A stretch of 64,000 bases of DNA from an uncultured bacterium (GTDB lineage Bacteria > Acidobacteriota > Thermoanaerobaculia > Multivoradales > JAHZIX01). Positions 32,219 to 64,000 of this stretch are shown here, in pieces; position 1 is the stretch's first letter, and each line of letters starts with the position of its first letter. Under the pieces are notes generated by a model. It did no database searches, had not been told where the DNA came from, and saw only the letters and a program-made list of their open reading frames with translations. The position numbers were made by a program, and so were the translations under genes. The stretch covers positions 83,540-147,539 of the forward strand of contig CBDUPA010000012.1 in NCBI GenBank assembly GCA_965368975.1. Direction: 5' to 3'.

Positions 32219-32420
32219 CGGGCAAATTCCGTCGCTGTACCGGGATTCCCGGCAGGCAAGAAATGCGCGCCGCGCCGTGCCAGGATTGGCGCAAAAAGTT
32301 CCTCTGTCGTAGGACAAGCCCGGGATCACTTGTGCTCCGAGGCACGGCCGGCCGCCGTCGCCAAATCACAGAGTAAAAAGGGCTTGCGTCGATCCAGGGC
32401 GTGTTCTAGAATTGGAACTA

Positions 32421-33585: not shown

Positions 33586-33591
33586 GGCGAT

Positions 33592-34695
33592 TTGGCTACC
33601 GGATCGGACCGTGAATCCGGTCCGGTAGCGGTACTCCTGAGCACCGTTTTCGCCCCATCGCCTGGGCAGCCCCCTGCCCCGGTATACACTAGAGGCGTGA
33701 AACAACCCGAGTCTCCGGAATCTGAGCATCCGGACCGTGATCCGGTCCCCGTACCGCCGGCTTCTCTGCAGGCTACTGCCGAGACGGAAGGCAACTACCC
33801 CGACCTGTACCTGGTTGCCGAGTGCGGCGAGCAGGATCAAGAGAAATTGGTGCGCGAACTGGTGGCCCCGATCGTGGCCGAGATCCGGGATCATCCGGAA
33901 CTCGAGTCGCTGTTCTTCGTGCGCATGAGCAAGCCTACCTGGCAAGTCCGCCTGCGTGTCGTCGGAGACTTGGAGTGGTTGCAGAACCGCTGCAGGCGCG
34001 TGATGTGCCTGCGTCTCGACGCCTTGCGCGGCCGGCGGGCGGTGCACGACTTCAGCCTGGGGCACTACGGGCGTGAGCTCGAGCGCTACGGCGGTGAAGG
34101 CGGCATGCGCATCGCCGAACAGCTGTACCACCACGACTCGCTCGCCTGCTTGGACCTGATCACCGCCGAGGCCCGCGGCCTGCTCGAACGTTCGCGGCGT
34201 GAGCTGGCGCTGCTCTACAGCGAGCGGCTGGCCAATCGGTTGGGCCTGCATGGCGAAGACCGCTCGCGCTTTTACCGCTACGGCTACCAGTGGACCTTCC
34301 AGACCGAGACCTGGGACCAGAGCGATGCCGACGCACTAGAAGAACGGTTCGAGCAACTGGAGGCCGGGCTGCGCTCCCTCTTTCCGCTGGGTGGCAAGGC
34401 ACCGCCCGAGACGGATCTCTGGGGCGGAGACGAGCCGGCGCGCGTTGGTGCCGGCCTGGCAGCGTCGCAAGAACCAGCGCTGGCACGGCTGCTCAAGGGG
34501 CACAGGGCGGGGCGCATCGGCGGTGATCTGGCCTACCTCGGCTGGTCCTACTGCCACCTCTTCTGCAACCGCCTGGGCATCGACCCGTCCGGCGAGGCGG
34601 TACAGCGCTACCTGATGCACCTGTACCACTACCGCGTCCGTGCCCAGGGCTCGCTGCCGGGGCCCTTGCTCACCGAAGCGGCCAGCGACACCTGA
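33592..34695 (+). CDS. LanB C-terminal (glutamate-elimination, SpaB_C / thiopeptide-type bacteriocin biosynthesis) domain protein
   Basis: LYLVAECGEQDQEKLVRELVAPIVAEIRDHPELESLFFVRMSKPTWQVRLRV... and LGHYGRELERYGGEGGMRIAEQLYHHDS fit the family pattern (FF-RY...H-RLR; Y-PE-ERYGG...AE-F--DS). The TTG start is uncertain; the N-terminal ~60 aa are Pro-rich. Confidence 0.7.
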   Translation: MATGSDRESGPVAVLLSTVFAPSPGQPPAPVYTRGVKQPESPESEHPDRDPVPVPPASLQATAETEGNYPDLYLVAECGEQDQEKLVRELVAPIVAEIRDHPELESLFFVRMSKPTWQVRLRVVGDLEWLQNRCRRVMCLRLDALRGRRAVHDFSLGHYGRELERYGGEGGMRIAEQLYHHDSLACLDLITAEARGLLERSRRELALLYSERLANRLGLHGEDRSRFYRYGYQWTFQTETWDQSDADALEERFEQLEAGLRSLFPLGGKAPPETDLWGGDEPARVGAGLAASQEPALARLLKGHRAGRIGGDLAYLGWSYCHLFCNRLGIDPSGEAVQRYLMHLYHYRVRAQGSLPGPLLTEAASDT

Positions 34696-34698
34696 ACG

Positions 34699-37464: not shown

Positions 37465-37638
37465 GGGGGAGGTAGTTGCAGTCCAGGGCACTCGAGTCCT
37501 TGGTCTGCTTGACTGCGGTTTGCCGCGTACTAGATCAAGGGTTTCTTGTCTCTTTCGTAGTTGGGTAACGAGTGTCGCCGTCAATGAGTGACAGGGCAGC
37601 TCGAGTCACGAACCAGGTGACAAAAAGGGGATTGCATC

Positions 37639-40362
37639 GTGGTCGTATGTCTCTTGGAGACAGTCGTTCGAAGAGCAGTGACAGCTGCTGCGATTCTGAC
37701 GCTTGTCGTGGGACTGGGCTTACAGGCACAGTCAGGGTCTGCTAACGCCCCGAAAGGGGCCCAGTTTGTCTTCGTGATCGATGATTCTGGCAGCATGGGG
37801 CAGCCGGAACACGGGCTTACAGACCCCGATCGGCTGGCTGTGTTCGCGGTGCGTGCTCTACTGGGTGTGCTCGACGACCGGGACTGGGCGACAGTTGTTC
37901 GTCTCAATGGCCCTCGCGAGGGTGAAGATCCGCTATCGCTGGCGCCTTTGGGAGATGCGCACCGAACCCGGCTGATGGAGGTTCTGCAGCTGGACGCGGA
38001 ACTGGCGCGATATGAGGGGGAGTACACGCCTTGCCGAAGGGCTCTACAGGCCGTCAAGCGGATGCTCGAAGGGTCGGATAGGCAGAACATTTCCCAAGTC
38101 GTGATCTTCCTTTCGGATGGCAAGTGCACACCGGTAACGCAAGGGGAAGATCGTGTCCTTGACTTTGCTGAAGGTTTGCGCTCGGCTCAGGGAGAGAATC
38201 CGCGCCTTCAGTTCTACTTTCTGCGATTCGAAGGGCAAGAGTACACTCCGGGGCTGGAGCAGCTGGCCGAGAACACCGGAGGTTCGGCGATCGAGGTCCG
38301 ACAGGGGGATCCGACGCGGATCCTCTACACCTTTGCGCAAGCGCTGGCCCGCTCGCAGGGCTACGAACCTCTGATCCTCAGTCCGAGCGTGCGGCAGCTG
38401 CCGGCCTACCGGGGGGCCAACCGAGTCCGCTTGCTGGCAATTGCGCGCGGCGATCAGGGAGAGCCGTTGGCGGTGCGCGTCCGGCGTCGTCAAGGGGGCG
38501 GAGTCGATACGGTGCCGATCGAGCAGGGCACCCACAGATTCCCGGGGCAACAGGGGTATCGCTTCGCTTCGGTGCAGTATCGGCCGGTCGAGCAGCCGGT
38601 GGAGGTGGAGGTGGTCGGAGCCGGCGAGGATTGGGAGGTCGTTGCCTTGCCGGAATATCACCTGGCGGTCAACCTGGCCTTGCGTCGTGGTGGCTGTGAG
38701 GAGGAAGGCGAGACCCTGGGTGGCGTCACGCCAGCCGGAAGCGGATTGTGTGCGGTGATCGAGCTAGTCAATGAGGAAGGGCGCGTGGTGGGCAAGGAGG
38801 TGACCACCGGGCAGTTACAGGCTTCCTTGCGTCAGACAGTCCCGGGTGGTTCCGAGCCTCGGCTGATTTCGGCAACGGAAGCTTCCTCGGATCTCGCCAG
38901 CTTCCGCTTGGATATACAAGGGCTCGAGAGCGGTCACCACGAGTTTCAGGGGCAGGTCCAGTTGGGGACCCAGGTTGACGATCCCCGAGTTCTGACGGGC
39001 ACTGCGCGAACACTGCAAGCAGTAGATCTGGCGATCCGGCCGGTTCCGAGTGAGCTGCGACTCGATCCAATCCAGCCCGGTGAGGTCAGCCGTCAGAGCC
39101 TGGAGATCCATGGCAACTTCGCGCCGTCGGAAGCCGTGGTCTCCTTGGAAGAGGGAGAGAATCTGCCGAGCTGCGTGACCTTAAGCTTTGACGGCAAGGA
39201 GCTTGGAGAGACCATCTCGATTCGTCCAAAGCAGGGCTACTGGGTCGAATTTCGGGCGGCCAAAGCCTGCGGCGAGACGCAAGGTCGACAGGTCGATGCG
39301 CGCCTGCGCCTGGAGCTTGCGGGACTCGATTCGATTGCCATACCGGTAACCTTTCGCTTGGAGAACAACGCCCAACGCCGAGATCCGACAACAGTGGAAT
39401 TGCGGGCAGGTACGACGAGAGAGGTCGATGTAGCAATCCCCGCGGCCTGGAATTCTTTCGACGTACAAGCAACCGCCGCCGAGAATGCGCAGGGCGAAAC
39501 CTATGAGTTGCTGCGCGCTGAGATTCTGAGCGAGCCTCCGATTCCCTCTGAAGACGGTGAAGCCTCAGGTCGCCAGCGAGTCGAGGGATTGACCGCTGAA
39601 CAGGGACTGTCTCTGCAACTCGTAGCTTCGGGCTGTTGCAGGTCCGGGACCTACGCCCTCGATGTCTACCTGTGGCCCAAGGTCGGTGCCACGACCATCG
39701 TACCGCTGGTCGTCGAAGTCGAGGCCAGCTGGTGGACCTGCTACGGCTCTTGGGTGCTCGCGGGGACCATCGGTCTCTTGGCTGGCTTGCTGGTGTTCTA
39801 TGTCCTGAGCATGTTCAGTCATACCACCTTGCTCGACCGAGACCAGCTGAGCGCTCGTCTAGTGCCCTTACGCTGGCCTCGCCATCGCGGCGCACCGCAA
39901 CCCGCCAGCAATCGCAGTAGTGACCGAGAAGAGGTCGAAGACATTGTGCACAGTGAAGTCTCTAGCCTGCAGCGGGTGCGGAGCTGGCTACGAGCCAATC
40001 CCCTGGTCTTTGGCTCGCCTGGGCGAGAGTACAGAGAGACGGCCGAACTCTTTTTGACCACTGATCTCGGGCTAACCTCGATTTCCCTGGTATTGGAGCG
40101 GGATGTCGTCGACCGACTCCGGACGAGCGAGGAGATCGACACTTGGGAAGAGGGGAGGCTCTTCGCGCGCGCCGGCAATCCCGTCTCCTTCTTTGTCGTG
40201 CGCGGTCCGAGCAAGAAAGTTCAGCAGATGACTCCGGAAGGCTGGTTCGGCAAGGTCGATGACCTGACTGTCGAGCAGGTTTCCAAAGGACAAAGATTCA
40301 TTCGTCAGCTTTCCATCAAAGAGCGCAAAGAAGGCGCTGTGGCCGGGTGGGTTCTGGAATAG
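37639..40362 (+). CDS. exported von Willebrand factor A (vWA) domain protein with single C-proximal TM helix and cytoplasmic tail
   Basis: Signal/anchor: RRAVTAAAILTLVVGLGLQAQS. vWA with MIDAS: FVFVIDDSGSMGQ...; VVIFLSDGKCTP. About 500 aa of beta-rich repeats follow. TM helix: WWTCYGSWVLAGTIGLLAGLLVFYVLSMF. The tail is ~200 aa. Confidence 0.75.
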   Translation: MVVCLLETVVRRAVTAAAILTLVVGLGLQAQSGSANAPKGAQFVFVIDDSGSMGQPEHGLTDPDRLAVFAVRALLGVLDDRDWATVVRLNGPREGEDPLSLAPLGDAHRTRLMEVLQLDAELARYEGEYTPCRRALQAVKRMLEGSDRQNISQVVIFLSDGKCTPVTQGEDRVLDFAEGLRSAQGENPRLQFYFLRFEGQEYTPGLEQLAENTGGSAIEVRQGDPTRILYTFAQALARSQGYEPLILSPSVRQLPAYRGANRVRLLAIARGDQGEPLAVRVRRRQGGGVDTVPIEQGTHRFPGQQGYRFASVQYRPVEQPVEVEVVGAGEDWEVVALPEYHLAVNLALRRGGCEEEGETLGGVTPAGSGLCAVIELVNEEGRVVGKEVTTGQLQASLRQTVPGGSEPRLISATEASSDLASFRLDIQGLESGHHEFQGQVQLGTQVDDPRVLTGTARTLQAVDLAIRPVPSELRLDPIQPGEVSRQSLEIHGNFAPSEAVVSLEEGENLPSCVTLSFDGKELGETISIRPKQGYWVEFRAAKACGETQGRQVDARLRLELAGLDSIAIPVTFRLENNAQRRDPTTVELRAGTTREVDVAIPAAWNSFDVQATAAENAQGETYELLRAEILSEPPIPSEDGEASGRQRVEGLTAEQGLSLQLVASGCCRSGTYALDVYLWPKVGATTIVPLVVEVEASWWTCYGSWVLAGTIGLLAGLLVFYVLSMFSHTTLLDRDQLSARLVPLRWPRHRGAPQPASNRSSDREEVEDIVHSEVSSLQRVRSWLRANPLVFGSPGREYRETAELFLTTDLGLTSISLVLERDVVDRLRTSEEIDTWEEGRLFARAGNPVSFFVVRGPSKKVQQMTPEGWFGKVDDLTVEQVSKGQRFIRQLSIKERKEGAVAGWVLE

Positions 40363-40408
40363 AGCTCGAGGCCGGTCCGAAAACAAAAGCAAAATTGCGA
40401 GGTTGAAC

Positions 40409-43400
40409 ATGGCCAGAGATCGTAAGTTGATCGTCGAAGAACTCCTGACCAAGCCCAGCGGCGTGTGTCCGATGCTGTTCGTTGGTATGGGAGGAGCGGG
40501 TTGCAGGATGGTGGAGCGGATCGCCGGTCATCTCCGAGGTCGACCGGATTATAAAGAACGCTTCAAAGATCTGGTCAAGTTCGCCATGATCGACAGCAAT
40601 GTCAATGATCTGGAAGGGTATCGAGAAGTGGCCAATGCAACCTTCCTGATCAGTGACTTCGAGAAGGAGGAGTACGCCAATCTGGCCTCTGGCAAGAAGT
40701 TCCTGGAACCGCAGCAGTACTTTACACAGTGGGTGCCGTCGGACTATCGCTTCCGCTCCGGAGATACCTCGGGGGCTGGCCAGATTCGCATCGAATCTCG
40801 TCTGGGTGTTTACTACCAGATGAAGCACAAACAATTCGTGCCCAGATTCCGCAGTCTCTTGGAGAGTCTGAAGTCGCACGAGAACGGACATCGGAGGTTG
40901 GACTCCGACGAGATCCGGATCGTACTCTGCTATTCCGTCGCCGGCGGAACCGGCTCCGGTTGTCATCTGCCAGTGGCCTATATGTTGCGGGATCAGGCCG
41001 ACGACCTGGGCAAGCCGACTTTGATCGGTGTTGCGGTGTTGCCGGCGGTCTTCGAGGACAAGGTCGGCGTCAATAAGGATGGTGTTTTTGCCAACGGTTA
41101 TGCAGCTCTGAAGGAAACCGAGCATTTGATGAAGCTCGGTGCCCCGGATTCTCGGTTCTTTCCCGAGAAGGGGATCGAGTTTCACTACAACCCCGCCGAT
41201 GAATCGAAGCGAACGGTTCACGCGCGTCCCTTCGACTTCCTTTATCTGATCGACAAACCCGAGTCGTTCAGCGTTCCCGAGCCGGTGGATGCTGCGGCGG
41301 ACGGACTCTATCTGCAGTTCTTCTCGCCCCTCTACGGGGCCCAGCTCTCCGACTACGACAACTACACGCAGTACCAGAGGTTCTTGGTACCGGAAGACTT
41401 CGAAGAGGGAGGCATTCCGGGCTTCTCGACCTTCTATGGCTCCTACGGTTGCGCAGTGCTCCTGGTGCCGGTTCCCGGCCTGGTGGAGTATTGCAGCCAG
41501 GCTGCCGCCCTGGCGTTGATTCGGGCCAGCTTCATGGGGGATATCCCAGCGGATCCGATGTACGAGCCCTTGCGCATCGACAGCGACCGCTTCTATGAAG
41601 TCAAGGAGCGCGACGACGAGGATGCGCAGCTCTTCCAGGCTGCGGATATCCCCAGTCAGCCTCAGAAAGAGCGTCGCCGAAGGTTGTTCGATCGGCTTTT
41701 TGCCAAGCGGGTGCGCCTGCTGGCGGCGTGTGAGTACCGGGCTGACCGCGACGGCCGGTTCCGCGGCATCTTCCGGCACGGCCACTATCTCGGAACCATC
41801 CCGAAGCTCGACGGTAGCGCCGTCATGGACATGGAGCGGTTCGACGAAGAGGCCGAGCGCGAGCGCGAGCTGGTCGGTGGCAAGCTCAGCGTTTCGATCG
41901 GCGGCATCATCCTGCCCGCCTTGGTCGGACTGCCGGGGGACGACCCCGGACTCCTGCAACGGGCGCACCAAGCGATCAAGAACTTCAAGGTCGACAAGCC
42001 GCGTCGTGACATGCGGGTCAACGAACTACGAGCGCGCGGCGACGCGTGGCGGACGATGTTGAGGGATGAGGGGCGTCAACGCCTGCGCGATGGCTACAGC
42101 GATGGCACGGTGCAGGTGCCTGGCATGGAGAGCCTGGTGCAAATGGACTTCCTGCGCCGGGAGGCGGGAGAGGTCGAGCTGGCGGCCAAGCGCTACGCGG
42201 TGCTCTCTCTGCTCGACGCGGTGGATTGGGAACAAGCGCCGGAAGACGAGGCCGAGTCCAACTTCGATGTCCAGGAGAAGAAGCCCACGGCCAAGGCCGA
42301 CGATGCCTTGATCGAGCACGTAATCAACCAGGCTCGGGATCTGGCCTTCCGCGACATCCGCCGCGAGTTCCTGTCCCAATTGGGCGAGTTGCGCGAGGCG
42401 CTGGAGAGCATCGCCGACGAGATGCGGGAGCTGGAGCAGGGGTCGACCAACCTGGAGCGCGAGTACGGTCGTCGCCTGGAGCGCCTGCAGTTCCAGGGCG
42501 AGGAGTCGGCCAATCAGTACATCCTGGACGCCGAGGCGTTGCAAGGGGAAGACAATCGACGCTTCTGGGACTTCTACTTCGAGGACAAAATCGCAGCTCT
42601 GCCCGAGTTGTCGCTGAGCAATGCTCGCGTGCAACAAATCCTGAGTGACACCGTCATCGAGCTATCGCAGCGTACGGGCCGCAGCACGAGCACGTCACGC
42701 CTGGAGAAACTGTTCACCGCGTTGCGCAAGTATGCCCAGGACTTCCTCGACAAGCGGATCGGCGGTGATCGTCACTCACCGGACCTGGAACGTCGCGAAG
42801 GGTTGACGCTGTCGGATGCGCTGGAGCTGGAGATCACCTACCGAGCGCTCTATCGCAGCTACGCCGAAGCGATCCAGGGGCAGGGGGACAAGGTCATTCG
42901 TCGCATTCTCTCCGAATACCGCGCCCTGCCCGACGAGAAGCAGATCGATTTCGCGGAGCCCAAGCACCAGGACTATCTGCGCGACAAGATCAAGCGGGTA
43001 GTGCAGGAGAAGGCATCCCTGCTCTGTGTCTACAACCACTCACGCGATCAGCATGGTGGCGTGCGGCCAAACCATATCTTCCTGGCCGCGATTGATGAGA
43101 ACTTCAAGAACAGCAACATCGAACAGGCGCTGAAAGATGCCGACATCGATGATCTCAAGTGGGTGTCCGGCAGCTGGCACAACGCCAAAGAGATCGTCTT
43201 CTACCGCGCGGTGTTGAATGTTCCGCTTTACACCTTCGGTCGGCTCGACCAGATGAAGCACCACTATGAAAGCTTCCGCAGTCTGAGGCGGCGCTCGAAG
43301 GTGCTGCACATCGACAAGAACTGGGAGGGTGACCAGCTCTGTGACCTGGATCCGGGCACGCTCAAAGAAGTGCATCGTCAACTAACCGTGCGCGACCAGA

Positions 43401-44278
43401 TCATCAACTTCACCTCGCTGCTGAGCAGCAAGCATCCGCGCATCGATGAGAAGGGGGCTACCTGCATCTTGCGTCGGCGCGGGCGCTACTATCTGCTGGA
43501 TCCGACCCTCAGCAAGATACCCGATGAGCACGATCCTGGTTCGACCTTGTTGGGCGACGCCCTGGCCCGAGCCATCGAACGCTTGCCCGAGGTGCTCGAT
43601 GCCGAGCGCGTGAACTTCAGCGAGTACCGGGATTCGCTGCACGGTGTACGCAATGGCATGGCCCCGTGGCTGCTGGGCAAGATCTGCAGGTTACCTTTCC
43701 AGTGGCGCCTGCAATACGAAGATTTGAGCAACCACTATGGGCATCAGCGTTCGATCGAGCAGCAAGAGATTCTGCGTGATCTGAAAAACTCCTACGAGAA
43801 GCTCAATGAAGCGCTGGACTCTCTGCTCGCGGAACTGCGCAATCGTCGACTCGAGAGTCGGACCCGCAAGGAGGACTTCACGGTCTACGCTCGCCGCTTG
43901 ACCGCCCAGCAGGCCAAGGATGCACTGGATCAGAGCATCAAGGTGCTGGCCAACTACAGCGAGGCCTGGAGCAAGGTCGAGGACAGCTCGCAGGTCCCGG
44001 ATACCCCCGAGTCGTTCGTGGATCTCTTCCAGCCTCTGGACCATGGCAAGTTGCAGAGCATGCTCGACAAGTTGCACAAGCCGATCCTTGATGACGATGA
44101 TGACGATGAGGAAGGCGATGGCCCCGGCCCAGCCAAGCCCCCAGCGGAGCCGGTCAAGCGCCCAGCGGAGCCAGACAAGCCCTCAGCGGAGCCAGACAAA
44201 GACTCGGCGGAGCCAGACGAAGACTCTGCCACTGAAGAGCCTTCGGAACCAGATCCCACTGAAACCGAAGGGTCATGA
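40409..44278 (+). CDS. giant tubulin/FtsZ-superfamily GTPase (Tubulin_2 / FtsZl-1-like) with long coiled-coil region and acidic repeat tail
   Basis: MLFVGMGGAGCRMVERI (G-box/T1-like), GDTSGAGQIRIESRLG (T3-like), and IRIVLCYSVAGGTGSGCHLPVAYML with the tubulin signature AGGTGSG at nt 40940-40960. GAGG lies 6 nt upstream of ATG 40409. The C-terminal ~800 aa are helical or charged. Confidence 0.7.
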   Translation: MARDRKLIVEELLTKPSGVCPMLFVGMGGAGCRMVERIAGHLRGRPDYKERFKDLVKFAMIDSNVNDLEGYREVANATFLISDFEKEEYANLASGKKFLEPQQYFTQWVPSDYRFRSGDTSGAGQIRIESRLGVYYQMKHKQFVPRFRSLLESLKSHENGHRRLDSDEIRIVLCYSVAGGTGSGCHLPVAYMLRDQADDLGKPTLIGVAVLPAVFEDKVGVNKDGVFANGYAALKETEHLMKLGAPDSRFFPEKGIEFHYNPADESKRTVHARPFDFLYLIDKPESFSVPEPVDAAADGLYLQFFSPLYGAQLSDYDNYTQYQRFLVPEDFEEGGIPGFSTFYGSYGCAVLLVPVPGLVEYCSQAAALALIRASFMGDIPADPMYEPLRIDSDRFYEVKERDDEDAQLFQAADIPSQPQKERRRRLFDRLFAKRVRLLAACEYRADRDGRFRGIFRHGHYLGTIPKLDGSAVMDMERFDEEAERERELVGGKLSVSIGGIILPALVGLPGDDPGLLQRAHQAIKNFKVDKPRRDMRVNELRARGDAWRTMLRDEGRQRLRDGYSDGTVQVPGMESLVQMDFLRREAGEVELAAKRYAVLSLLDAVDWEQAPEDEAESNFDVQEKKPTAKADDALIEHVINQARDLAFRDIRREFLSQLGELREALESIADEMRELEQGSTNLEREYGRRLERLQFQGEESANQYILDAEALQGEDNRRFWDFYFEDKIAALPELSLSNARVQQILSDTVIELSQRTGRSTSTSRLEKLFTALRKYAQDFLDKRIGGDRHSPDLERREGLTLSDALELEITYRALYRSYAEAIQGQGDKVIRRILSEYRALPDEKQIDFAEPKHQDYLRDKIKRVVQEKASLLCVYNHSRDQHGGVRPNHIFLAAIDENFKNSNIEQALKDADIDDLKWVSGSWHNAKEIVFYRAVLNVPLYTFGRLDQMKHHYESFRSLRRRSKVLHIDKNWEGDQLCDLDPGTLKEVHRQLTVRDQIINFTSLLSSKHPRIDEKGATCILRRRGRYYLLDPTLSKIPDEHDPGSTLLGDALARAIERLPEVLDAERVNFSEYRDSLHGVRNGMAPWLLGKICRLPFQWRLQYEDLSNHYGHQRSIEQQEILRDLKNSYEKLNEALDSLLAELRNRRLESRTRKEDFTVYARRLTAQQAKDALDQSIKVLANYSEAWSKVEDSSQVPDTPESFVDLFQPLDHGKLQSMLDKLHKPILDDDDDDEEGDGPGPAKPPAEPVKRPAEPDKPSAEPDKDSAEPDEDSATEEPSEPDPTETEGS
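44141..44224 (+). repeat. 4 x 21-bp in-frame tandem repeat (PAEPVKR/PAEPDKP/SAEPDKD/SAEPDED) inside the tubulin-like gene
   Basis: CCAGCGGAGCCGGTCAAGCGC / CCAGCGGAGCCAGACAAGCCC / TCAGCGGAGCCAGACAAAGAC / TCGGCGGAGCCAGACGAAGAC. Confidence 0.85.
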
Positions 44279-53649: not shown

Positions 53650-53801
53650 AGATCTGTAGATTTCTGTGCTGGATTTCCGGGAATGGCTCCACTAAGAAGA
53701 AACGCGAGAACACGTCGATTCCCGGACCAACGGCTGTACTCAATCTCGGCGGAAAAATTCAGCTTGGCTTTCTGAGTGGCTTAGATCATGAAGACGGGCC
53801 C

Positions 53802-55967: not shown

Positions 55968-58900
55968 TCAGTCTCCTCTGCTAGCGCCTCTGCTAGTACC
56001 TCGGCCAGCGGCGAGACGTCGACCGTCCCGTCGGGCTCGAGCGCCAGGTCTTCCAGGTAGAAAAGTCTCCAGTCCGCCGCCGGCTCGCCGACGGCCCAGG
56101 CGCTGTCGGCGTACGAGGTGAGCGCGACGCGCGCGGTGTGCCACACCAGTTCGGCCTCGCTCCACACGGTATCGCGCTGGTTCGGTATGTCGTCACCGAC
56201 CACCGGCTCCACGATGCCCGCGGCGATCATGGCCTCGGCGGCGCCTCGGTAGGCGTCCTCGATCTCGTCGAGCTGTGTCCAGATTGCATCCTCGCCTTCC
56301 GGGCCGTGCTCGGCGAGGCTGCGCAGCTGAGCGATGCCGCTGTAGTCGCCGACGTCCGATGTGGTGACGAAGACGATGTCGTCGATCGCGCGCAGCCACT
56401 GGAAGAGACGCAGGAAGCCACGCCACGCCCGGTGCATCTGCGGCAGTTCGCGCCGATCTTCGCGGTCGTCGAGTTCGCGGTCGTCGAGGCGGGCGAGCAC
56501 GGTCACTCGCTGACCATCGTGGGCGGCCATCCACTCGATCTGCCGCGGCTCGCCCCAGGTGCCGCTGGCGAGGGCGCGGGGCCTCGTCGCGGCGAGCTGG
56601 TCGCGTAGGGCTTCCGGTGCCGCTTGCCGCGCGAACTCGGTCCAGGCGCGTTGCTGACTCGGCAGCGTGGCTTCGAGTCGAGGTACCAGCGCCGCCGCCG
56701 CCAGGTCGCGCCACGGCAAGCCGTTGGCATCTTGGAGGTCCTGCAAGAGCCAGCGGAAGGTCGACTGTTGCGGCAGGTCGGTGAACTGGGTGAGGCCCAG
56801 CTGCTGGAGAGCCTTCTTGAAGTCACCCAGGTCGAGCGCCGCCAGTTCGGGCGCGGGCTCGACCTCGGTGGATCTCGTCAGCTCGGCTTCCAGATCGTCC
56901 CAGGTGAAGGTCCACACGTCCCAGCCCGCGGCCAGCAGTGCCTGGCGCTGGCGCAGGTCCTGCCCCAAGCGATCTTGGTGGAACTGCCAGCCGTCGAGGA
57001 AGATGGCCAGACGACGATCGGTGGCGGCGCTGGCCGGTCGCAGCACGAAGTCGATCGAGACGCCGATGCCGCCGGTCTCGGCCCTCGGCGGTTCGACCTG
57101 CGGCTCGATACGCCATTGGGCGTCGCCCAGCGTCCACAGCCAAGCATCTTTGATGCCGATCGGGATCCGCTTCAGCTGGGCTGGGTGCTGTTCGTTGCCG
57201 GCGCGTAGTAGGGCTTCGAGGAAGCGGGCTTCGAGGGCACTGTCGAGCAGGCCGGAGTGGCTGATGTCGCCCAGGCGTTCGATTTCCTGCACGCTGTCGG
57301 CGCGCGCCAGGATGCGGCGCAGGATCTCGGAGGCCGTGCGCGCCGAGGTGTCGCGCATCTCGCGACTGTTGCGGTAGCCGAAGAGGCAGCGATAGCAGCC
57401 TTCCACCAGCTTGCCGGCTCGGTTCGTGGTGCCCCAGCAGGCGCAGCCCTCGATCCGTTGCAGGCTCGCCTCGAGAGCTCGGAACAGGGGTATCGTGGCA
57501 TCGGCATCGGGCGTGACCAGCTGTTTCAGAAAGCCGGTGCCGCCGGGCACGGAGTCGAAGAGCACCAGGTACTGGCGGCGCAGCGTGCTGTCGGGAGTCG
57601 GTTCGGAGTAGACGGTGGTGCGCAGGTGGTCGACGCTGCCGGCGAAGTAGCTCTCCAGCCCCAGCTGCAGGGCGGCGGTGAACGAGTTGAGCTGGCGCGT
57701 GCCGGCGAAGTCGGTGATCGGCAGCAGCAGGCGCAGGGCCTCGGACTCGAGCTGGCGGTAGAGATAGACGCAGGACTCGATCTGCTCGTCCGTGTCCTTG
57801 CGTCGCGACGGGCAGGACAGCAGGTGGTCGGTCTTCTCACCCTTGCGCGTCGCCTGCACCTTGCCGCAGCGTGCGCACAGCTCGAAACCCTGGCGCACCA
57901 TGGCTCGGCCGGCGATGGTGTTGCGCGCGCCCAGGTCGGAGGGTTCGCCGAAGTTGATGTCGCGAAAGGTCACCCGTGCGCAGTACTCGAAGCCGAAGGG
58001 GTGACGGTCGTCGTCCAGCCGCCAGGCGCGCGAGGAACTGCGAGTGTCGAAGGTGGGCAGGATGTCGCGCTCGAAGAAGCGCGGCTGGCGTTCGTCGCGA
58101 TCGTCGCGAATCCGGGAGTTGCGGTCGGATTCTCTGGCGAATACTTGCTCCAGCTTCAGCAGGCGCTGGGTCTGGCCGCTGTCGCGCCAGTCGGCGGCGC
58201 CGCAAACCGGGCAGGCCGTGTGCGCATCGCCGGTGTCGATCGACTCGGCGTGGCTGCACTCGGGGCAGAAGCGCCAGGTCTCGAGCTTGGAGGACGAGAG
58301 ATCGACGGCGTCGATGCCCACGCGTCGTCCCGAAGCGTAGAACTCGGCGCCAGGCGCCAGCTCGGCCAGGGCGCTCGACGGCGAGCGCTTGTACTCGTAG
58401 GTCCAGGTTTCGTAAGGACTCCCCTGGGCTGGAGGGTGCTTCTTGCGCCGCCAGATCACCGAGCGCAGTCGCACCGCCGACTCCGGGAAGGCGTAGTTGG
58501 GCAGCAGGCCCTGGTCGGTGAGGAATTCGAGCGTCGAGCGCTGGTTGATCGCCTTGATCAGGCCGATCAGGGCCTCTTTCTCGGCTTCGCGCTCGTCGAT
58601 CTGCTCCTGGTGGTCCTTGTCGCGGGCCTCGGTGGCGCGTAGCACTTTGAGTTGCTTGCGCAGGGTCTCTACGTTGGCGCGGTGTGCTTCGCGCTGCTTG
58701 CGTTCCTTGTGCAGGGTGTCGAGCAGGCGGCTTTCGAGGGTCGCCTCGATGTGGTGCAGGGCATCTCGAGCTTGCGCCTTCTCGGGCTGCTCGCTGTCGA
58801 GTTCAGCTTTGGCCTCCGCGCCGAGCAGGAAGCGCTCCAGGTGGGCGGCGGTGGGCGGTCCGATCTCGTCCTCGAACATCTCGAGGAATTCTCGCAGCAG

Positions 58901-61900
58901 GCGCGGACGCTCCTGCTTCACGAAGGCGAGCAGGTTGCTCGGGAACCGCTCGACGTCCGGCTGGTTGCCTTGGTTGAGCACGCTGCGCAGCTGCGGCGGT
59001 AACTCGGCACGGTCACCCTCGACGCCGACCCAGCGATCGATGCAGAAGGCGGTGAGCTGGCGTTCGAGCACGGCTCCGGTGTCGAGAAAGACACCGGGCG
59101 GCGGCACGTCACCGGCGATCATCTCGTGCGGCTGGGCGAAGAAGTAGAGGTCGTGCGGCTTCGCCGCGGCGACGGTGAGCACGAAGGCGTTGCCATCGCG
59201 CCGGCCGGCGCGGCCGATGCGCTGCAGGTAGCTGGCCTGGCCGGGTGGTACCGAGCACAGGATGGCGCTCGACAGGTCGCCGATGTCGATGCCCATCTCC
59301 AGCGTCGGCGTGCAAGAGAGCAGGTTCGGGTACCACGGCCGCCGCGCCTCGGGATCGTCCAGCTCCGGCGACGGTTCGAATGCTTTGAACTCGATCTCGA
59401 TGCGCTCGCGCTCGGCGCGCTCCAGCAGGCCGGTATGCTCCTGGGCAAAGATGCGCTGCAGGTGACCGCTGCGGTAGAGATGGCCGAAGTAGTCGTGTGC
59501 CGGCGCGGCGTCCGGACGGTAGACGCCGGCACAGCCCGTGCGCAGGCAGGGTACGCCGTGCCAGCGTTCGGCCAGCGCGCGGCTGGCGTGGGTGCGGTGA
59601 CCGCAGACGTGGCAAGCCAAGGCTGCACTGTGCGGGCTGATGACCAGCGCTTCTTCGCGCAGACCCCAGATCTGCTCACCCTTGGATGCACTGCGCTCGT
59701 CGAGCAGGCCGACTCGCACCAGCGCGCTCAGCACCACCGGGTACAGCGAGCCGGCGTCGGCGACCAGGCCGGGGCCACCCAGGAAGCAGGCATCGGCCCA
59801 GCGTGCATACCAGGATTCCCCGCCCCGTCCGGTGCGGCTCCAGGTGTCGAAGCGACGGCCGGTGCGGTCGGTCAGGAAGCTGGGCAGGCGCGAGCTGCTC
59901 TTGTAGCCGGGCAACGCCGGTTGCCGGGAGAAGGCATGGACATCCTTGCCGCAGCTCTCGATATAGGCGCCCGGCAGGCTGCGTGCCAGGATGCCGCCGC
60001 GCAGGCGCAGGTGTTGTAGCAGTCCGAGCACGAACGCCTCGACGCGCCGCGCTTCGACCTGGCGCAGGCCGGGCACCTCGTTGCGCACCACCTCCACCAA
60101 GGCCGCCACCGCGGTCTCTACATCGCCCGGCCGCAGGTCGGCGACGGCGCAGCCGGTGCGGGTCAGTGAGCGGCCGATCTCCGCCTGCAGCGAGAACTCG
60201 GTCAGCACCTCGAAGGCCAGGCGCTGGTCGATGAGGTCCGGCAGGTCGGAGGCGCGCGGTAGCTCGCCGTCGCGACGCAAGGCGTCCCAATCGTGCAGCC
60301 AGGCCATGTTGGGCGCCAGGAAGGTGGCGACGAAGGTCGCCTCGTCGTGCGCCTGCCGAGCCCACGGGCCGAGCCCGTCGGCCAGCTCGCGCAGCGTGGT
60401 TTCGCCCAGGGGCTCGAGCGCTTGCAGCATCGCGATGCGCAGGTTGGTACGCCAGGTGCGAGCGGCAAAGAAGCCGGCCCGGTGCGCCGCGTCTTGCACG
60501 CTGTCGGAGAAGGTGAGCAGCTTCTTGTCGTCGTTGAAGCGCGAGGCGAAGAGCTGGTCGATGTGCACGCTGGTCAGCGTGGCGGCGCGGAAGCCGACGA
60601 TGGCCAGGCTCTCGCGTGCGCGGCAGAAGGGGCAGTCGCGCACCAGGGCTTGCCGGCTGGCGGTGGACTGAGCTTCGAAGATTTCGATCACCCGCAGCGT
60701 CTCGTCGGCGTGCTCCGCGTCGACCTTGATCAGGTTCTTCACGTCGAGCTCGAAGGCGCTGTGCTGGAGCCGGTCGTCGGCGGGCCAGGCGTTGGCGGGG
60801 AACAGGAAGCGTACGCGGCTGCTGCGCCCGAAGTAGGCGTCGTAGAAGCGCCGCGGCAGGCAGCGATAGAGGTACGGCCGATCGCGTTCCACCACAGTGC
60901 CCCAGCCCAGGGCGCCGCATTCGCGGCAGTGGATCATCGGCAGGTGGCGGTCTTGCTCCTCCTCGTCGAGGTCGTCGGAGTGCCGCAGGTGCGGCTGCGG
61001 TCCAACGTTGGCGACCAGGCGTCGCAGCTCGCGTTGCCACAGCTGCACGCGCACCTCCAGCAGCGGCGCCGCCGGTCTCGGTCGCCCCTCGGCGCGCCGC
61101 CGCTCGGCCACTTCGGGCAACTCGTGACGCCAGGCGCGAGCCTCGGAGACCAGGCCCAGCAGGCTGAGCACGGCGAGGCGGGCGAACTGGGCGTCCCGGT
61201 GCCAAGCGTCGCGCCTGCGCCGCATCTCGTGCACGGCGTCGTCCAGCGTCGTGGCCTGGCCATCGAGGGCGCGCAGCAGGTCGTGGAAGGCGGCATGGTG
61301 GCGCAACTGCCGCCCCAACTCGACGCTGCGCTCGAACGATTCAGGCCCAGTGAGTTCGCCCTCACCGTCGGCGCCGATCGTCGCCGCTACGTCTGCCGGG
61401 AACCACAGGGCGAGCTGCGCCGCCAGCCAGGCGTGCGGGTCCGGGGCCTGCGCCGCGTCGAGTCGCTCCAGGTCTTCAGCGTCCGGTTCCTCGGTGTAGC
61501 GGATCTCGCAGCCGTGCAAGAACTGCTCCACACTCTGCCGCGTCTCGCCGATGATGGCGTCGGCGTCGAAGGGTTCGCCGAAGACCTTACGCGCATAGTC
61601 CCGCAGCTGTTCTCGCGCCGCCTCGCCGCCCAGCGTGGCGCTGGTGCCGATGCAGGCCAGCGAGCCGTCGTCCACGTCGAGACGCCGCTTGAGGCGTCGC
61701 AGCAGGCAGGCCAGGTCGGTGCCCTGGGCGCCGTCGAAGGTGTGGATCTCGTCGACCACCAGGAAGCGCAGCGTGCCCTTCACGTTGTGCTGCCAGATGC
61801 GCTGATCGCGTGGACGCAGCAGCAGGTAGTCGAGCATCTTGTAGTTGGTGAGCAGGATGTCCGGCGGCGCTTCTTGCAGGGTGGCGCGATCGGTGATCAC

Positions 61901-62461
61901 GTGGTCCGCCCCCATGCGCGTCTCGCCGTGTGCCGACCCACGACGCTTGCCCTTGCCACCGCTACCCCCGTCCCCCACGTAGAGCCCCGCCGTCACGCGG
62001 CCGCGCAGCTTGTGGTTGTCATAGATCCGCCGCGCGATGCGCGCCGCCTGGTCGCTGGCCAGCGCGTTCATGGGGTAGATCAAGATCGCCTTGACGCCCG
62101 GCTCGTGCGCCGTCTGCAGGCAGTGGTCGAGAATCGGAAGCAGGAAGCTCTCGGTCTTGCCGGAGCCGGTGCCGGTGGCCAGCAGGGTGCTCTGCTTGCG
62201 TCGACCGCCGAGGCGGGCGAACACTTGTTCCTGGTGGTGATGGGGAGGAAACCCGAGCGGTACGTCGGGGAAGACGTCTGGGGTCTCGCCGCTCAGGAAG
62301 GGCATCTTGACGGAGAGGTAGGGCCCCTTGAACAGCATGCCGTCGTCCGCGAGCAGGTGTTCGACGACGTTCTCCATGCCCGGCGTGGAGGACCAGAAGG
62401 AGAAGCGCAGGAAGTCTTGCAAGCCCTGTTCGAGCTGGCGGTGGATGGCGGAGGGGATCAA
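55964..62461 (-). CDS. 2165-aa DExH-box helicase with DUF1998 zinc-ribbon domain and C-terminal Vsr/DUF559-like domain (DrmA+DrmB-fusion-like / DruE-like)
   Basis: Motif I: LLATGTGSGKTESFLLPIL. Motif II: LRFLVVDEIHTFDG. Motif III: IGTSATL. Motif VI: YLQRIGRAGRRDG. Zinc ribbons: CPECSH...CPVCG, CARCGK, CYRCL. DUF1998 core: YLVLFDSVPGGTGFLKQL. Near the C-terminus, IDFVLRP...RLAIFLDGWQFH...RQALLAAGWDVWTFTWDDL resembles the DUF559/Vsr endonuclease fold. Confidence 0.8.
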   Translation of the reverse strand: MIPSAIHRQLEQGLQDFLRFSFWSSTPGMENVVEHLLADDGMLFKGPYLSVKMPFLSGETPDVFPDVPLGFPPHHHQEQVFARLGGRRKQSTLLATGTGSGKTESFLLPILDHCLQTAHEPGVKAILIYPMNALASDQAARIARRIYDNHKLRGRVTAGLYVGDGGSGGKGKRRGSAHGETRMGADHVITDRATLQEAPPDILLTNYKMLDYLLLRPRDQRIWQHNVKGTLRFLVVDEIHTFDGAQGTDLACLLRRLKRRLDVDDGSLACIGTSATLGGEAAREQLRDYARKVFGEPFDADAIIGETRQSVEQFLHGCEIRYTEEPDAEDLERLDAAQAPDPHAWLAAQLALWFPADVAATIGADGEGELTGPESFERSVELGRQLRHHAAFHDLLRALDGQATTLDDAVHEMRRRRDAWHRDAQFARLAVLSLLGLVSEARAWRHELPEVAERRRAEGRPRPAAPLLEVRVQLWQRELRRLVANVGPQPHLRHSDDLDEEEQDRHLPMIHCRECGALGWGTVVERDRPYLYRCLPRRFYDAYFGRSSRVRFLFPANAWPADDRLQHSAFELDVKNLIKVDAEHADETLRVIEIFEAQSTASRQALVRDCPFCRARESLAIVGFRAATLTSVHIDQLFASRFNDDKKLLTFSDSVQDAAHRAGFFAARTWRTNLRIAMLQALEPLGETTLRELADGLGPWARQAHDEATFVATFLAPNMAWLHDWDALRRDGELPRASDLPDLIDQRLAFEVLTEFSLQAEIGRSLTRTGCAVADLRPGDVETAVAALVEVVRNEVPGLRQVEARRVEAFVLGLLQHLRLRGGILARSLPGAYIESCGKDVHAFSRQPALPGYKSSSRLPSFLTDRTGRRFDTWSRTGRGGESWYARWADACFLGGPGLVADAGSLYPVVLSALVRVGLLDERSASKGEQIWGLREEALVISPHSAALACHVCGHRTHASRALAERWHGVPCLRTGCAGVYRPDAAPAHDYFGHLYRSGHLQRIFAQEHTGLLERAERERIEIEFKAFEPSPELDDPEARRPWYPNLLSCTPTLEMGIDIGDLSSAILCSVPPGQASYLQRIGRAGRRDGNAFVLTVAAAKPHDLYFFAQPHEMIAGDVPPPGVFLDTGAVLERQLTAFCIDRWVGVEGDRAELPPQLRSVLNQGNQPDVERFPSNLLAFVKQERPRLLREFLEMFEDEIGPPTAAHLERFLLGAEAKAELDSEQPEKAQARDALHHIEATLESRLLDTLHKERKQREAHRANVETLRKQLKVLRATEARDKDHQEQIDEREAEKEALIGLIKAINQRSTLEFLTDQGLLPNYAFPESAVRLRSVIWRRKKHPPAQGSPYETWTYEYKRSPSSALAELAPGAEFYASGRRVGIDAVDLSSSKLETWRFCPECSHAESIDTGDAHTACPVCGAADWRDSGQTQRLLKLEQVFARESDRNSRIRDDRDERQPRFFERDILPTFDTRSSSRAWRLDDDRHPFGFEYCARVTFRDINFGEPSDLGARNTIAGRAMVRQGFELCARCGKVQATRKGEKTDHLLSCPSRRKDTDEQIESCVYLYRQLESEALRLLLPITDFAGTRQLNSFTAALQLGLESYFAGSVDHLRTTVYSEPTPDSTLRRQYLVLFDSVPGGTGFLKQLVTPDADATIPLFRALEASLQRIEGCACWGTTNRAGKLVEGCYRCLFGYRNSREMRDTSARTASEILRRILARADSVQEIERLGDISHSGLLDSALEARFLEALLRAGNEQHPAQLKRIPIGIKDAWLWTLGDAQWRIEPQVEPPRAETGGIGVSIDFVLRPASAATDRRLAIFLDGWQFHQDRLGQDLRQRQALLAAGWDVWTFTWDDLEAELTRSTEVEPAPELAALDLGDFKKALQQLGLTQFTDLPQQSTFRWLLQDLQDANGLPWRDLAAAALVPRLEATLPSQQRAWTEFARQAAPEALRDQLAATRPRALASGTWGEPRQIEWMAAHDGQRVTVLARLDDRELDDREDRRELPQMHRAWRGFLRLFQWLRAIDDIVFVTTSDVGDYSGIAQLRSLAEHGPEGEDAIWTQLDEIEDAYRGAAEAMIAAGIVEPVVGDDIPNQRDTVWSEAELVWHTARVALTSYADSAWAVGEPAADWRLFYLEDLALEPDGTVDVSPLAEVLAEALAEETE

Positions 62462-64000
62462 GCGCGGTCCTTCCCGTCAGCGAGCGGACGGCCTTGTTCG
62501 GCGAATCTTTTGGTGAAATGTTCCCAGGCGACCGCGTAGTCCTTCTCGCGGTCGCAGCGCACCCACGGCGCCTGGTACACGATCGTCTTCTCGCGCGGGC
62601 CGCCGGGCAGAGTGTCGTCCATCACGACCTGGGTCACGGTCTCGTTGCCGGTGTAGCCGGCTTCTTCGGACATGTGTTGGACGTCGTTCCAGCAGGGGTT
62701 CGGATCTTTCTTGCTGGTGGTGCGGTTCAGGCCGACACCCACCAGGCCGCGCGAGTTGGTGAAGACGATGCGGCCGTTGCGGTCGTACCAGGTGTCGGCT
62801 TCGTAGGAGCGCAGGACGGGGAATTGGACGCGGTAGATGGTCTGGAGTTGTTCGAGGGTGAGGCCGAGGGCCATGGAGATCAGGACGTCGATTTCTACCA
62901 GCACGGCGCGGCGGGCGGCGTCGGGGCGGATGGCGGAGTCGCGGGTCCAAGACTGGTCGCTCGATGCGAAGGGCTGTTCCAGGAATTGAGAGAGGAAAGG
63001 TGTCGCTTCTGTACTCCACTCCCGCCTGGATCGGCGATTCCAGAGATCTGCGAAGTGGGTGGTGAGGCAAACGAGGCTACAGACTCGGGCGACGAGAGCT
63101 TCCTGGATCTTGGACTCGGGGATGATCGGTAGGCGCCGCGCCAGGTTTGGTCGGAAGTCTCCAGAGCCGCTCGATTTGATCAGGAAGTCAATCGGTAAAG
63201 ACATCCACGTCCCAGCTACAGCTACAGCCTGAGTCTCATTCGAAAAACAATAACTGTAGACACCGTCGATGTGCGCTGTGCCTGGTGGTGAGATGGCCGG
63301 TTGCAGTGTGCGCTCACTTGTCGGGCCCAGACCTCTGTTCACCACGAGTCGAAAGTAGTCCAGTACCGCGTTCGGGGCATCATCCGAGGCCCAAGGGACT
63401 TTGGGCGATCGCGTCCGATAGTCTGAGGGCTCGGCATTGGGCAGATAGATCGAGCGCGGCAGATAGTCTTCTGGTAGCTCCGTCAGGTCCAGTACGTCAT
63501 AGCAGCTGTTGTTCGTGACCTCTGCGCGCGGAGTCTTGTAGAACGGATTACCGACGTGGAAGTGCGGTCCGGAAATAATCCATTCGTGTACATCTTGCGG
63601 GAACCTCACCTCCTTTCGGATGGTTCCATCCCGCTGAGACCGGGACTCGTGCCACATTTCTGCCGACTTGTAGCAGTCTGCCGGCAGATCGCCCAGTTTC
63701 AATGGACTGACAGCGAACGCTTCGAGCGCCTGAAGCAAGGTCGCAGAATGGAGCGCCGGAAGCTTGGCCTCCGTTGCCGGAGTGTCCGGTTCGTCATAGA
63801 GACGAGCAAAGAGTTCCAGCTCCGTCTCCGTGATGCGCAGAATCCGATCACGATGACCGCGCGTCTCCCAGCTGTTCTCGTCGTCCTTGATCCCGGGCAC
63901 CGGGCCGTAGCCATCGTGGGCATGACACTCGTCGATGGTTGCGGGGACGAAGAGATTTGCCAGGTGCGTGAAGTCCGGAGTGCTTCTTTGGGCTCCATAG
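62458..64000 (-). CDS. C-terminal part of a large MmeI/Eco57I/PglX-like DNA methyltransferase-type protein (5' end outside the window)
   Basis: The frame stays open upstream of the track's GTG (63900) to the window edge (...NLFVPATIDECHAHDGYGPVPGIKDD...). ERTLQPAISPPGTAHIDGVYSYCFSNETQAVAVAGTWMSLPIDFLIKSSGSGDFRPNLARRLPI resembles the target-recognition domain of type IIG/IIL enzymes. No catalytic NPPY/DPPY motif is visible in the in-window part. ATGA-type overlap with the helicase gene. Confidence 0.4.
   Translation of the reverse strand, partial: YGAQRSTPDFTHLANLFVPATIDECHAHDGYGPVPGIKDDENSWETRGHRDRILRITETELELFARLYDEPDTPATEAKLPALHSATLLQALEAFAVSPLKLGDLPADCYKSAEMWHESRSQRDGTIRKEVRFPQDVHEWIISGPHFHVGNPFYKTPRAEVTNNSCYDVLDLTELPEDYLPRSIYLPNAEPSDYRTRSPKVPWASDDAPNAVLDYFRLVVNRGLGPTSERTLQPAISPPGTAHIDGVYSYCFSNETQAVAVAGTWMSLPIDFLIKSSGSGDFRPNLARRLPIIPESKIQEALVARVCSLVCLTTHFADLWNRRSRREWSTEATPFLSQFLEQPFASSDQSWTRDSAIRPDAARRAVLVEIDVLISMALGLTLEQLQTIYRVQFPVLRSYEADTWYDRNGRIVFTNSRGLVGVGLNRTTSKKDPNPCWNDVQHMSEEAGYTGNETVTQVVMDDTLPGGPREKTIVYQAPWVRCDREKDYAVAWEHFTKRFAEQGRPLADGKDRA

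Follow-up and report, generated by a model that had tools for sequence, protein, structure and literature searches.

ARMADA type II systems, described in a 2025 preprint, have a strict gene order of ArmA (BrxHII/SNF2 helicase), ArmB (PglX-like methyltransferase), and ArmC (YprA-like helicase with a C-terminal Vsr nuclease); ArmD, a UvrD helicase resembling GajB, is fused to an N-terminal RelE-like domain (PMC12458937). The methyltransferase and three helicases, one with the nuclease, act together in direct, non-abortive protection that requires all four proteins, and the systems occur mostly in Actinomycetota and Pseudomonadota (PMC12458937). Makarova and Koonin reported the pairing of a vWA gene with the tubulin-like FtsZl1 gene in 2010 and suggested a role in membrane remodelling (PMC2875224), and Kaur et al. 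2020 predicted that tubulin and vWA neighbourhoods are conflict systems built round DO-GTPases and GAP1 (PMC7159879). No later functional study of vWA/FtsZl1 operons turned up in the searchable literature. Here we describe a 64,000-nt stretch of contig CBDUPA010000012.1 from an uncultured bacterium of the class Thermoanaerobaculia (hereafter, the window), in which a vWA/FtsZl1 module lies next to an operon that we assign to ARMADA type II.

We consider it probable that the DNA that begins at secF (32.1 kb) and reaches the window end is a variable region of the chromosome, in which a cluster for a ribosomally synthesized and post-translationally modified peptide (RiPP), the vWA/FtsZl1 module with two small genes (c303 and c184), and ARMADA II have separate histories and are subject to whole-module recombination and deletion. 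A preliminary description had read the stretch from 37.5 kb onwards as one 26-kb run of defence genes with mosaic composition and no mobility genes. The mosaic, the lack of visible mobility genes, and the presence of a real defence system were confirmed. The single defence island was not: a recognised defence system is seen in the last operon alone, so that the statement that every gene is defence-associated or unknown was too strong, and over half of the run (37.6–53.6 kb) is a conserved vWA/FtsZl1 envelope module. What had been a vague "defence island" becomes a set of defined units, whose genes are as follows.

30932–32116, plus strand: secF (Pfam SecD_SecF_C, E=1e-69), last gene of LolA-tgt-yajC-secD-secF and left anchor of the variable region
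37639–40362, plus strand: vWA protein (Pfam VWA_2, E=1e-5), first gene of the module
40403–44278, plus strand: FtsZl1, tubulin-like GTPase of 1291 aa (Pfam Tubulin_2 PF13809, E=9e-41; GGTGSG at residue 181)
44275–48330, plus strand: p3, 1351 aa, predicted divergent second tubulin/FtsZ-fold protein (structure model), without GGxGxG, with a transmembrane (TM) hairpin at ca. 942–990
48311–52258, plus strand: p4, 1315 aa, membrane superfamily 2 (SF2; DExH-like) ATPase (Pfam DEAD, E=3e-7), intact to the conserved C-terminal motif
52263–53084, minus strand: c303, single-TM protein; probable start at Met31 of a 303-aa open reading frame (ORF) running to 53174
53095–53649, minus strand: c184, coiled-coil protein with N- and C-terminal TM helices, upstream of its partner c303
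53802–55967, minus strand: ArmD, 721-aa UvrD/GajB-like superfamily 1 helicase with a 250-aa N-terminal domain (Pfam UvrD-helicase, UvrD_C; PADLOC GajB-like)
55964–62461, minus strand: ArmC, 2165-aa YprA-family DEAD/DExH helicase with MZB/DUF1998 and a C-terminal Vsr-like PD-(D/E)xK nuclease region (Pfam DEAD, Helicase_C, MZB, MTES_1575)
62458–64000, minus strand: ArmB, C-terminal 513 codons of a ca. 1630-aa PglX/type IIG-like DNA methyltransferase (PADLOC REase_MTase_IIG, E=4e-76)

Composition, synteny, and turnover right of secF

The guanine plus cytosine (GC) content of the region had been described as stepwise, and per-gene GC at third codon positions (GC3), entropy segmentation, and tetranucleotide signatures all bore this out. 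The source genome has a GC content of ca. 69%, and the window core has 0.69. GC3 was 0.79–0.91 in 19 of the 22 genes that precede 32.1 kb, 0.79–0.80 in the LanB genes of the RiPP cluster, 0.68–0.77 in the four large plus-strand vWA/tubulin genes (37.6–52.3 kb), 0.52–0.55 in the two small minus-strand genes c303 and c184, 0.86–0.87 in armC and armD, the large minus-strand helicase genes, and 0.72 in armB, the rightmost gene, which is cut by the window end; the far border of the region lies outside the window. Segmentation placed change points at 22601, 23341, 34531, 37351, 52251, 53861, and 62961, with segment GC of 0.619 (37351–52250), 0.511 (52251–53860), 0.682 (53861–62960), and 0.581 (62961–64000). 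The tetranucleotide correlation with the core was 0.90–0.93 in the helicase operon, 0.80–0.85 in the tubulin module, 0.57 in the final kilobase, and 0.55 in c303/c184, to be read against the core's own values of 0.85–0.95 in 5-kb chunks and a mean of 0.79 (minimum 0.52) in 1.6-kb chunks. Segmentation and tetranucleotides show a discontinuity, whereas GC skew, which the preliminary description had proposed to check, gave no clean signal.

The upstream genes had been called uniformly high in GC. This did not hold, as composition breaks at 22601, 23341, and 34531, and the mean GC of tgt-secDF is 0.649. The other three of the 22 left-hand genes have a GC3 of 0.66–0.73, all within a patch at 22–26 kb. 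A second compositional anomaly was seen at 22601–23340 (740 nt, GC 0.553), mostly intergenic, between a Pterin_4a gene and a TPR gene, with no Rfam match; GC3 of this TPR gene is also lowered (0.71).

No tRNA or tmRNA gene, Rfam family match, integrase, or transposase was found in window positions 1–64000. The repeat search of the window gave only short chance-level matches, without any long direct or inverted repeat or any repeat bracketing the island. No intergenic gap in 32–64 kb exceeds 344 nt, which leaves no space for an overlooked integrase or transposase. The earlier statement that no mobility gene, tRNA, or repeat boundary is in view therefore stands.

Gene order around secF was compared by a SecF-based scan of species-representative genomes, in which the nearest relatives were all Acidobacteriota of the class Thermoanaerobaculia (47–66% SecF identity). 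LolA-tgt-yajC-secD-secF is kept in ca. 45 Thermoanaerobaculia loci, and in 33 of these secF is followed by a gene for a ca. 750-aa RelA/SpoT protein (Pfam) and then by pilM through the pilQ secretin gene. Neither relA/spoT nor pilM through pilQ is present anywhere in the window, and none of the window genes right of secF adjoins secF in any relative examined. Because the secF-relA-pil order is broken here and no right-hand window gene lies beside secF in the relatives, the non-syntenic region begins at ca. 32.1 kb, instead of at 37.5 kb, where the left edge had been drawn. Synteny of the whole region in all relatives, which the preliminary description had named as evidence against its proposal, was not observed; nothing right of secF is syntenic.

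A close relative was found via the best c303 homolog (P0241, 64% identity), which lies on one 14.4-kb Logan contig (L110, from run SRR16995659). Its layout is that of the window, with p4 followed by convergent c303 and c184 and 3 nt between the stop codons. Protein identity to the window is 90% for p3 and 83–84% for p4 (85–88% at the nucleotide level), and c303/c184 show 72–77% identity. Positions 6540–6813 of L110 consist of two abutting pieces of the armD 3′ end, equivalent to 53799–53944 and 54325–54455 of the window (95% identity, 277 nt, 380-nt internal deletion). This stub is followed by unrelated genes encoding a sigma70_r4-like protein and a kinase-TPR regulator. The alignment of the window with L110 is continuous from c184 through the spacer into armD. 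Therefore, the module/ARMADA junction is ancestral to both loci, and ARMADA was later deleted in L110. tblastx of the left flank of L110 against the window gave only noise.

The divergence between the two loci is uneven. Third-codon identity was 0.76 for p4, 0.72 for p3, 0.50 for c303, and 0.48 for c184, and the armD stub carries 14 mismatches in 277 nt (binomial p=4e-7 against 14% divergence). Such unequal divergence means that adjacent segments do not go back to common ancestors of one age, so that recombination or transfer must have taken place. All genes of L110 have a GC of 0.51–0.62 and a GC3 of 0.60–0.73, matching the window module (0.62) and not the core (0.69), which hints that the tubulin module came from a lower-GC lineage. 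Alignment to a close relative, one of the checks suggested earlier, thus brought out module-level turnover at this spot. The changes documented for the locus are a whole-module deletion leaving a 277-nt stub, an allele replacement of the small gene pair, and an apparent recombination joint in the methyltransferase gene (described below). Judged from these alignments, the locus is a recombination and deletion hotspot.

In the course of events that we propose, the stepwise GC would reflect the separate histories of the modules. The tubulin module would have arrived horizontally, with a composition like that of the lower-GC relative, and c303/c184 would be intrinsically low-GC, deeply diverged alleles. 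ARMADA would be host-like in composition except for the recombined 5′ part of armB. Whole modules would have been recombined or deleted as the locus was assembled and turned over, and no self-mobile element visible in the window would have driven these events. By loose usage the region is a genomic island, with a synteny break at secF, segmented composition, and an ARMADA operon deleted in L110. The marks of a mobile-element island, namely integrase or transposase, tRNA/att site, and flanking direct repeats, were absent within 1–64000, and the right border is outside the window.

The genes between secF and the module are as follows.

32412–33248, plus strand: SirB1-like transglutaminase/TPR protein (Pfam Transglut_core2, E=5e-52; TPR_9), first non-syntenic gene, not at the secF flanks of relatives
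33463–37464, plus strand: small RiPP-type cluster (precursor candidate and split LanB; Pfam), GC 0.684 and host-like, not a defence set
33463–33585, plus strand: RiPP precursor candidate, 40-aa Cys/Ser/Thr-rich ORF MNKSKKPVSLNLELETVESRCKPGCGSSTTLPLCTCPISC, directly upstream of the split LanB
33592–34695, plus strand: split LanB dehydratase, C-domain gene first (Pfam Lant_dehydr_C, E=3e-33)
34699–37464, plus strand: split LanB dehydratase, N-domain gene second (Pfam Lant_dehydr_N, E=1e-46)

The 40-aa ORF resembles a lanthipeptide/RiPP precursor and is put forward as a candidate. No LanC cyclase is in view near the split LanB.

The ARMADA type II operon

The last operon had been described as a helicase operon. 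It is indeed a defence system, and specifically ARMADA type II rather than a generic or Druantia/Gabija-type set. armB, armC, and armD overlap by 4 nt each, in the order methyltransferase, YprA-type helicase, and UvrD-type helicase. The features of ARMADA II found here are a helicase with a C-terminal nuclease region (ArmC; weak Vsr-like matches to MTES_1575, E=1e-4, and DUF559, E=0.09), a PglX-like methyltransferase gene directly upstream of armC, and the UvrD core and position of ArmD. The armB frame is open to base 63999 and matches positions 1148–1577 of the 1584 of the REase_MTase_IIG model.

tblastn of ArmD against plasmids identified the Escherichia coli plasmid pQnrS1_005237 (L111, NZ_CP026578.2), which carries genes for SNF2 (952 aa), methyltransferase (1636 aa), DEAD helicase (2113 aa), and helicase (704 aa) in this order. 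ArmD shares 48% identity with its plasmid counterpart over 98% of its length, and the N-terminal 250 aa of ArmD alone share 44% with the E. coli ArmD-type counterpart (E=5e-64). ArmC is 36% identical to the E. coli counterpart over 2207 aligned columns, and the ArmB fragment is 44% identical to residues 1121–1631 of the 1636-aa methyltransferase. The Walker residues are K102/D237 in ArmC and K278/D475 in ArmD, compared with K110/D234 and K266/D454 in E. coli (PMC12458937). Pfam, a PDB sequence search, and BLASTP against RelE all failed to reveal a RelE fold in the N-terminus of ArmD. Homology and gene order identify the operon running from 53.8 kb past the 64-kb mark as ARMADA type II, represented by the C-terminus of ArmB, ArmC, and ArmD. 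ArmA and ca. 1120 codons of ArmB should lie past base 64000. The catalytic N-terminal part of ArmB is outside the window, and homologs of the fragment carry Eco57I (PF07669); in three loci with such homologs (L081, L082, and L111), a SNF2/DrmD-like gene precedes.

PADLOC scored ArmC as DruE1 (E=4e-99) and ArmD as GajB-like (E=3e-27). The library behind these labels, PADLOC-DB v2.0, predates ARMADA. Druantia or Gabija identity was rejected, since no DruA–D, DruH, DruM/F/G, or GajA partner was found by PADLOC among the neighbouring genes. Thus, the defence library of 2023 gives ARMADA II the wrong labels (DruE, GajB, and type IIG), and the locus extends ARMADA II to Acidobacteriota.

GC3 within the armB fragment was 0.62–0.68 in the first ca. 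330 codons and 0.88 in the last ca. 165, as in armC and armD, with the jump at ca. codon 340 of the fragment, near 62.96–63.0 kb. This jump looks like an intragenic recombination joint and possibly reflects a swap of methyltransferase specificity.

Several observations were made on the related loci. In the metagenome contigs L081 and L082, the methyltransferase was called as two ORFs. Zorya II ZorA directly follows the methyltransferase in L081, and in L082 a UPF0175/DUF3368 pair and an HNH gene lie between the methyltransferase and a split DruE/ArmC-like helicase. L111 is a conjugative IncFIB plasmid, on which a ca. 2105-aa DEAD helicase (Druantia III-like position) lies directly before the complete ArmA–D row and a tyrosine recombinase lies 2.2 kb downstream of armD.

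The vWA/FtsZl1 module and its companion genes

The vWA gene is followed after 40 nt by the FtsZl1 gene in the same orientation, as in vWA/FtsZl1 operons. According to motif and TM scans, the vWA protein has a signal/TM segment at 1–31, an extracytoplasmic vWA domain with an intact metal ion-dependent adhesion site (MIDAS; DDSGS, residue 48), a TM helix at 701–732, and a cytoplasmic tail. FtsZl1 is 77–79% identical to its closest homologs. The 3′ tail of its gene (44129–44212) contains four tandem copies of a 21-nt unit, CCAGNCAAGCCCNCAGCGGAG (consensus), which encodes a Pro/Ala/Lys/Glu-rich heptad repeat.

p3 had no Pfam match, no PDB sequence match, and no P-loop GTPase motif in the motif scan. 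Profile-profile comparison with FtsZl1 aligned only an N-terminal strand-loop-helix (probability 0.6%). Because this comparison is near-null, the tubulin relationship of p3 rests on the structure model, which predicts a tubulin fold with medium confidence. p4, the "helicase" of the vWA/tubulin operon, is a multi-pass membrane SF2 ATPase. TM and motif scans and alignment place five or six TM helices at the N-terminus, ahead of the Walker A motif (GSGKT at 458) and DDVE at 563. A weak hhalign match (E 0.0098, probability 4%) links its RecA1 domain to the one in ArmC, and sequence searches of p4 against PDB returned only noise or nothing.

Homologs of p3 numbered 126 at E <= 0.001, almost all near full length; most are from Thermoanaerobaculia, and others are from Bradymonas and Lujinxingia. 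The first metagenome scan with p3 alone as query gave no match. Look-ups and an alignment-based metagenome scan yielded 26 module loci (L083–L109; L089 is a near-duplicate of L083). The set vWA-FtsZl1-p3-p4 was present in every one of these loci that extends far enough. In nearly all relatives p4 is followed by a fifth gene (p5), which overlaps the p4 stop codon and encodes a lipoprotein of 340–400 aa. By tblastn, L101 was the sole exception among the 26 loci. In the window p5 is absent without a remnant (tblastn E > 0.2), and it is likewise missing in L110; the stop codons of p4 and the convergent c303 gene are just 4 nt apart (52258–52263). The window module is thus a lineage variant without the usual p5 lipoprotein.

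The module context differs in every genome examined. Called neighbours in relatives include PBP1C, A2M, ankyrin, MacB, histidine kinase, glyoxalase, SIR2, TPR, MoxR, and transglutaminase proteins, and ARMADA genes are never adjacent to the module in the 26 loci. PADLOC gave no significant match for any of the six module proteins. On 69 flank proteins from 17 relatives and L110, it returned only generic Ser/Thr-kinase-type matches (PD-T4-6 in three, MkoA in three, and mad6 in two).

The two small low-GC genes had been described as a two-gene cassette. The pair is not an independent unit: c303 homologs lie directly after the module in convergent orientation in eight loci (L083, L084, L085, L088, L089, L090, L105, and L110) and are low in GC in all eight. 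In the seven loci other than L110, the homolog comes right after p5 and is 26–51% identical to c303. The GC of the homologs was 0.54–0.57 in five loci and 0.64 in L105, against 0.60–0.72 for the module genes, and their GC3 was 0.61–0.65, against 0.73–0.90 for the module genes except p5. Across genomes of differing GC, c303 lies 4–17 GC points below the neighbouring module genes (ca. 8 or more in most loci). As c303 is lower in GC than the module in every related locus that carries it, its low GC is a family trait and not a sign of recent separate insertion. A recent independent insertion of c303/c184 was rejected for this reason and because the position of c303 is conserved. c184 was found only in the window and in L110 (73% identity, same position), and not in the other module loci.

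c303 had no Pfam match, and an AlphaFold2 model built from three sequences (pLDDT 49.5) was unusable for fold reading. In the public record of the source genome, c303 (P0242) is 169 aa long, corresponding to the C-terminal 62%. The deposited start is probably too far downstream, because homologs align from Met31 of the 303-aa ORF. Promoter and terminator scans round c303/c184 gave nothing above shuffled expectation.

We infer that these genes form a conserved envelope module with two tubulin-like proteins, whose output would be either defence or membrane remodelling. The periplasmic vWA domain would bind a ligand, and the vWA protein would signal via its TM helix and cytoplasmic tail to the FtsZl1/p3 pair. 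The tubulin-like pair would assemble at the membrane with GTP, and the membrane ATPase p4 and c303/c184 would serve as envelope partners.

Alternative explanations and comparison with described systems

The block from 32 to beyond 64 kb might be the cargo of one integrated mobile element, such as a satellite, a prophage-like element, or an integrative and conjugative element, with its integrase or att site past 64000. ARMADA II islands of E. coli are reported to ride integrase-bearing elements that target tRNA/tmRNA genes (PMC12458937), the E. coli plasmid has a tyrosine recombinase gene at a distance of 2.2 kb from armD, and the window ends inside armB with the far border unseen. However, neither a tRNA nor a repeat or integrase marks the left border at secF, and composition and divergence vary segment by segment. 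The modules also occur apart elsewhere, the tubulin module in 26 loci without ARMADA and ArmA/ArmB homologs without the tubulin module. We therefore regard a single element as rather unlikely. Still more improbable is that there is no island at all, and that vertically inherited genes show GC steps that are gene-specific, arising from amino-acid content or expression level and not from transfer. Such a reading would accommodate the host-like GC3 and tetranucleotide signature of the ARMADA genes, the low GC of c303 in every lineage, the FtsZl1 gene being always the lowest-GC gene of the module, and the wide spread of the p3 family in Thermoanaerobaculia. It is contradicted by the secF-relA-pil adjacency kept in 33 relatives and broken here, the different module context in every genome, the GC3 jump inside armB, and the incongruent divergence of adjacent segments from L110. 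A variable region of separately acquired modules agrees better with these observations, although some points weigh against it. Shared synteny leftward reaches only ca. 25.2 kb and is lost further left, and, as the relatives used for synteny are distant, a rearrangement instead of an insertion could have produced the break at secF. An integrase, tRNA, or relA may lie just past 64000. The L110 flanks may themselves be island DNA (one contig), which weakens the inference of a lower-GC donor. Finally, p3 has a structure model of medium confidence only, and the mechanism put forward for the tubulin module is hypothetical.

The "contiguous defence island" would be essentially right if the vWA/two-tubulin module were itself an anti-phage or conflict system, in which a vWA sensor drives a tubulin-like polymer, with the SF2 ATPase as effector or motor. 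The module adjoins ARMADA in two lineages (the window, and L110 via the armD remnant), tubulin and vWA neighbourhoods are predicted conflict systems (PMC7159879), the near-saturated synonymous divergence of c303/c184 is as expected of arms-race genes, and RecA1 of p4 resembles the Lhr/YprA type in a weak match. On the other hand, PADLOC had no significant match for the six proteins and only generic kinase-type matches in the flanks (69 proteins, 17 relatives and L110). The neighbours are housekeeping-like (PBP1C, A2M, histidine kinase, and glyoxalase), the DO-GTPase and GAP1 that define the systems of Kaur et al. were not found, and Makarova and Koonin favour membrane remodelling. A defence function of the module is therefore conceivable and doubtful on present evidence. 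More specifically, and with slightly less likelihood, it may be an undescribed envelope-spanning "two-tubulin" system, whose immune or conflict response would consist of a heteromeric tubulin-like polymer, driven by the periplasmic vWA sensor to assemble at the inner membrane, and in which the fast-diverging low-GC pair c303/c184 would be the exchangeable specificity or effector part.

The module resembles the GAP1-N2 DO-GTPase systems (PMC7159879) in having tubulin-domain proteins (two in the Firmicutes versions) and a membrane protein with an extracellular vWA domain, and in its predicted near-membrane action. In contrast to those systems, no DO-GTPase, GAP1, or fibronectin type III-repeat protein was recognised here (a model-based GAP1 search was not made), and an SF2 ATPase takes the NTPase slot. 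Membership in the DO-GTPase/GAP1 systems was rejected, as p3 has no P-loop and is tubulin-like in its predicted fold and p4 is of SF2 type.

As in the vWA/FtsZl1 operons of PMC2875224, the FtsZl1 gene comes right after a membrane vWA gene with an intact MIDAS, and the other partners are mostly membrane proteins. The partners differ from those operons: here they are the putative second tubulin-fold protein, the multi-pass SF2 ATPase, the lipoprotein (lost in the window), and the convergent small membrane protein, whereas the GTPase, OmpA, and protein-kinase partners are absent. The word "helicase" does not occur in the supplementary files of PMC2875224. The module represents a widespread architecture with a cryptic, predicted second tubulin-fold protein and a membrane SF2 ATPase, and it supplies a concrete gene set for the FtsZl1 operons, which have been without an assigned function since 2010.

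The last operon departs from the ARMADA II systems of PMC12458937 in its Acidobacteriota host, in having no Druantia III or Zorya II alongside and no visible carrier, and in the composition break inside armB. Against the Druantia and Gabija models of PADLOC-DB v2.0 (2023), ArmC scores as DruE and ArmD as GajB-like, yet their neighbours are those of ARMADA II. With ARMADA II the operon shares gene order, translational coupling, domain layout, full-length homology to the E. coli ArmA–D locus, and matching Walker positions.

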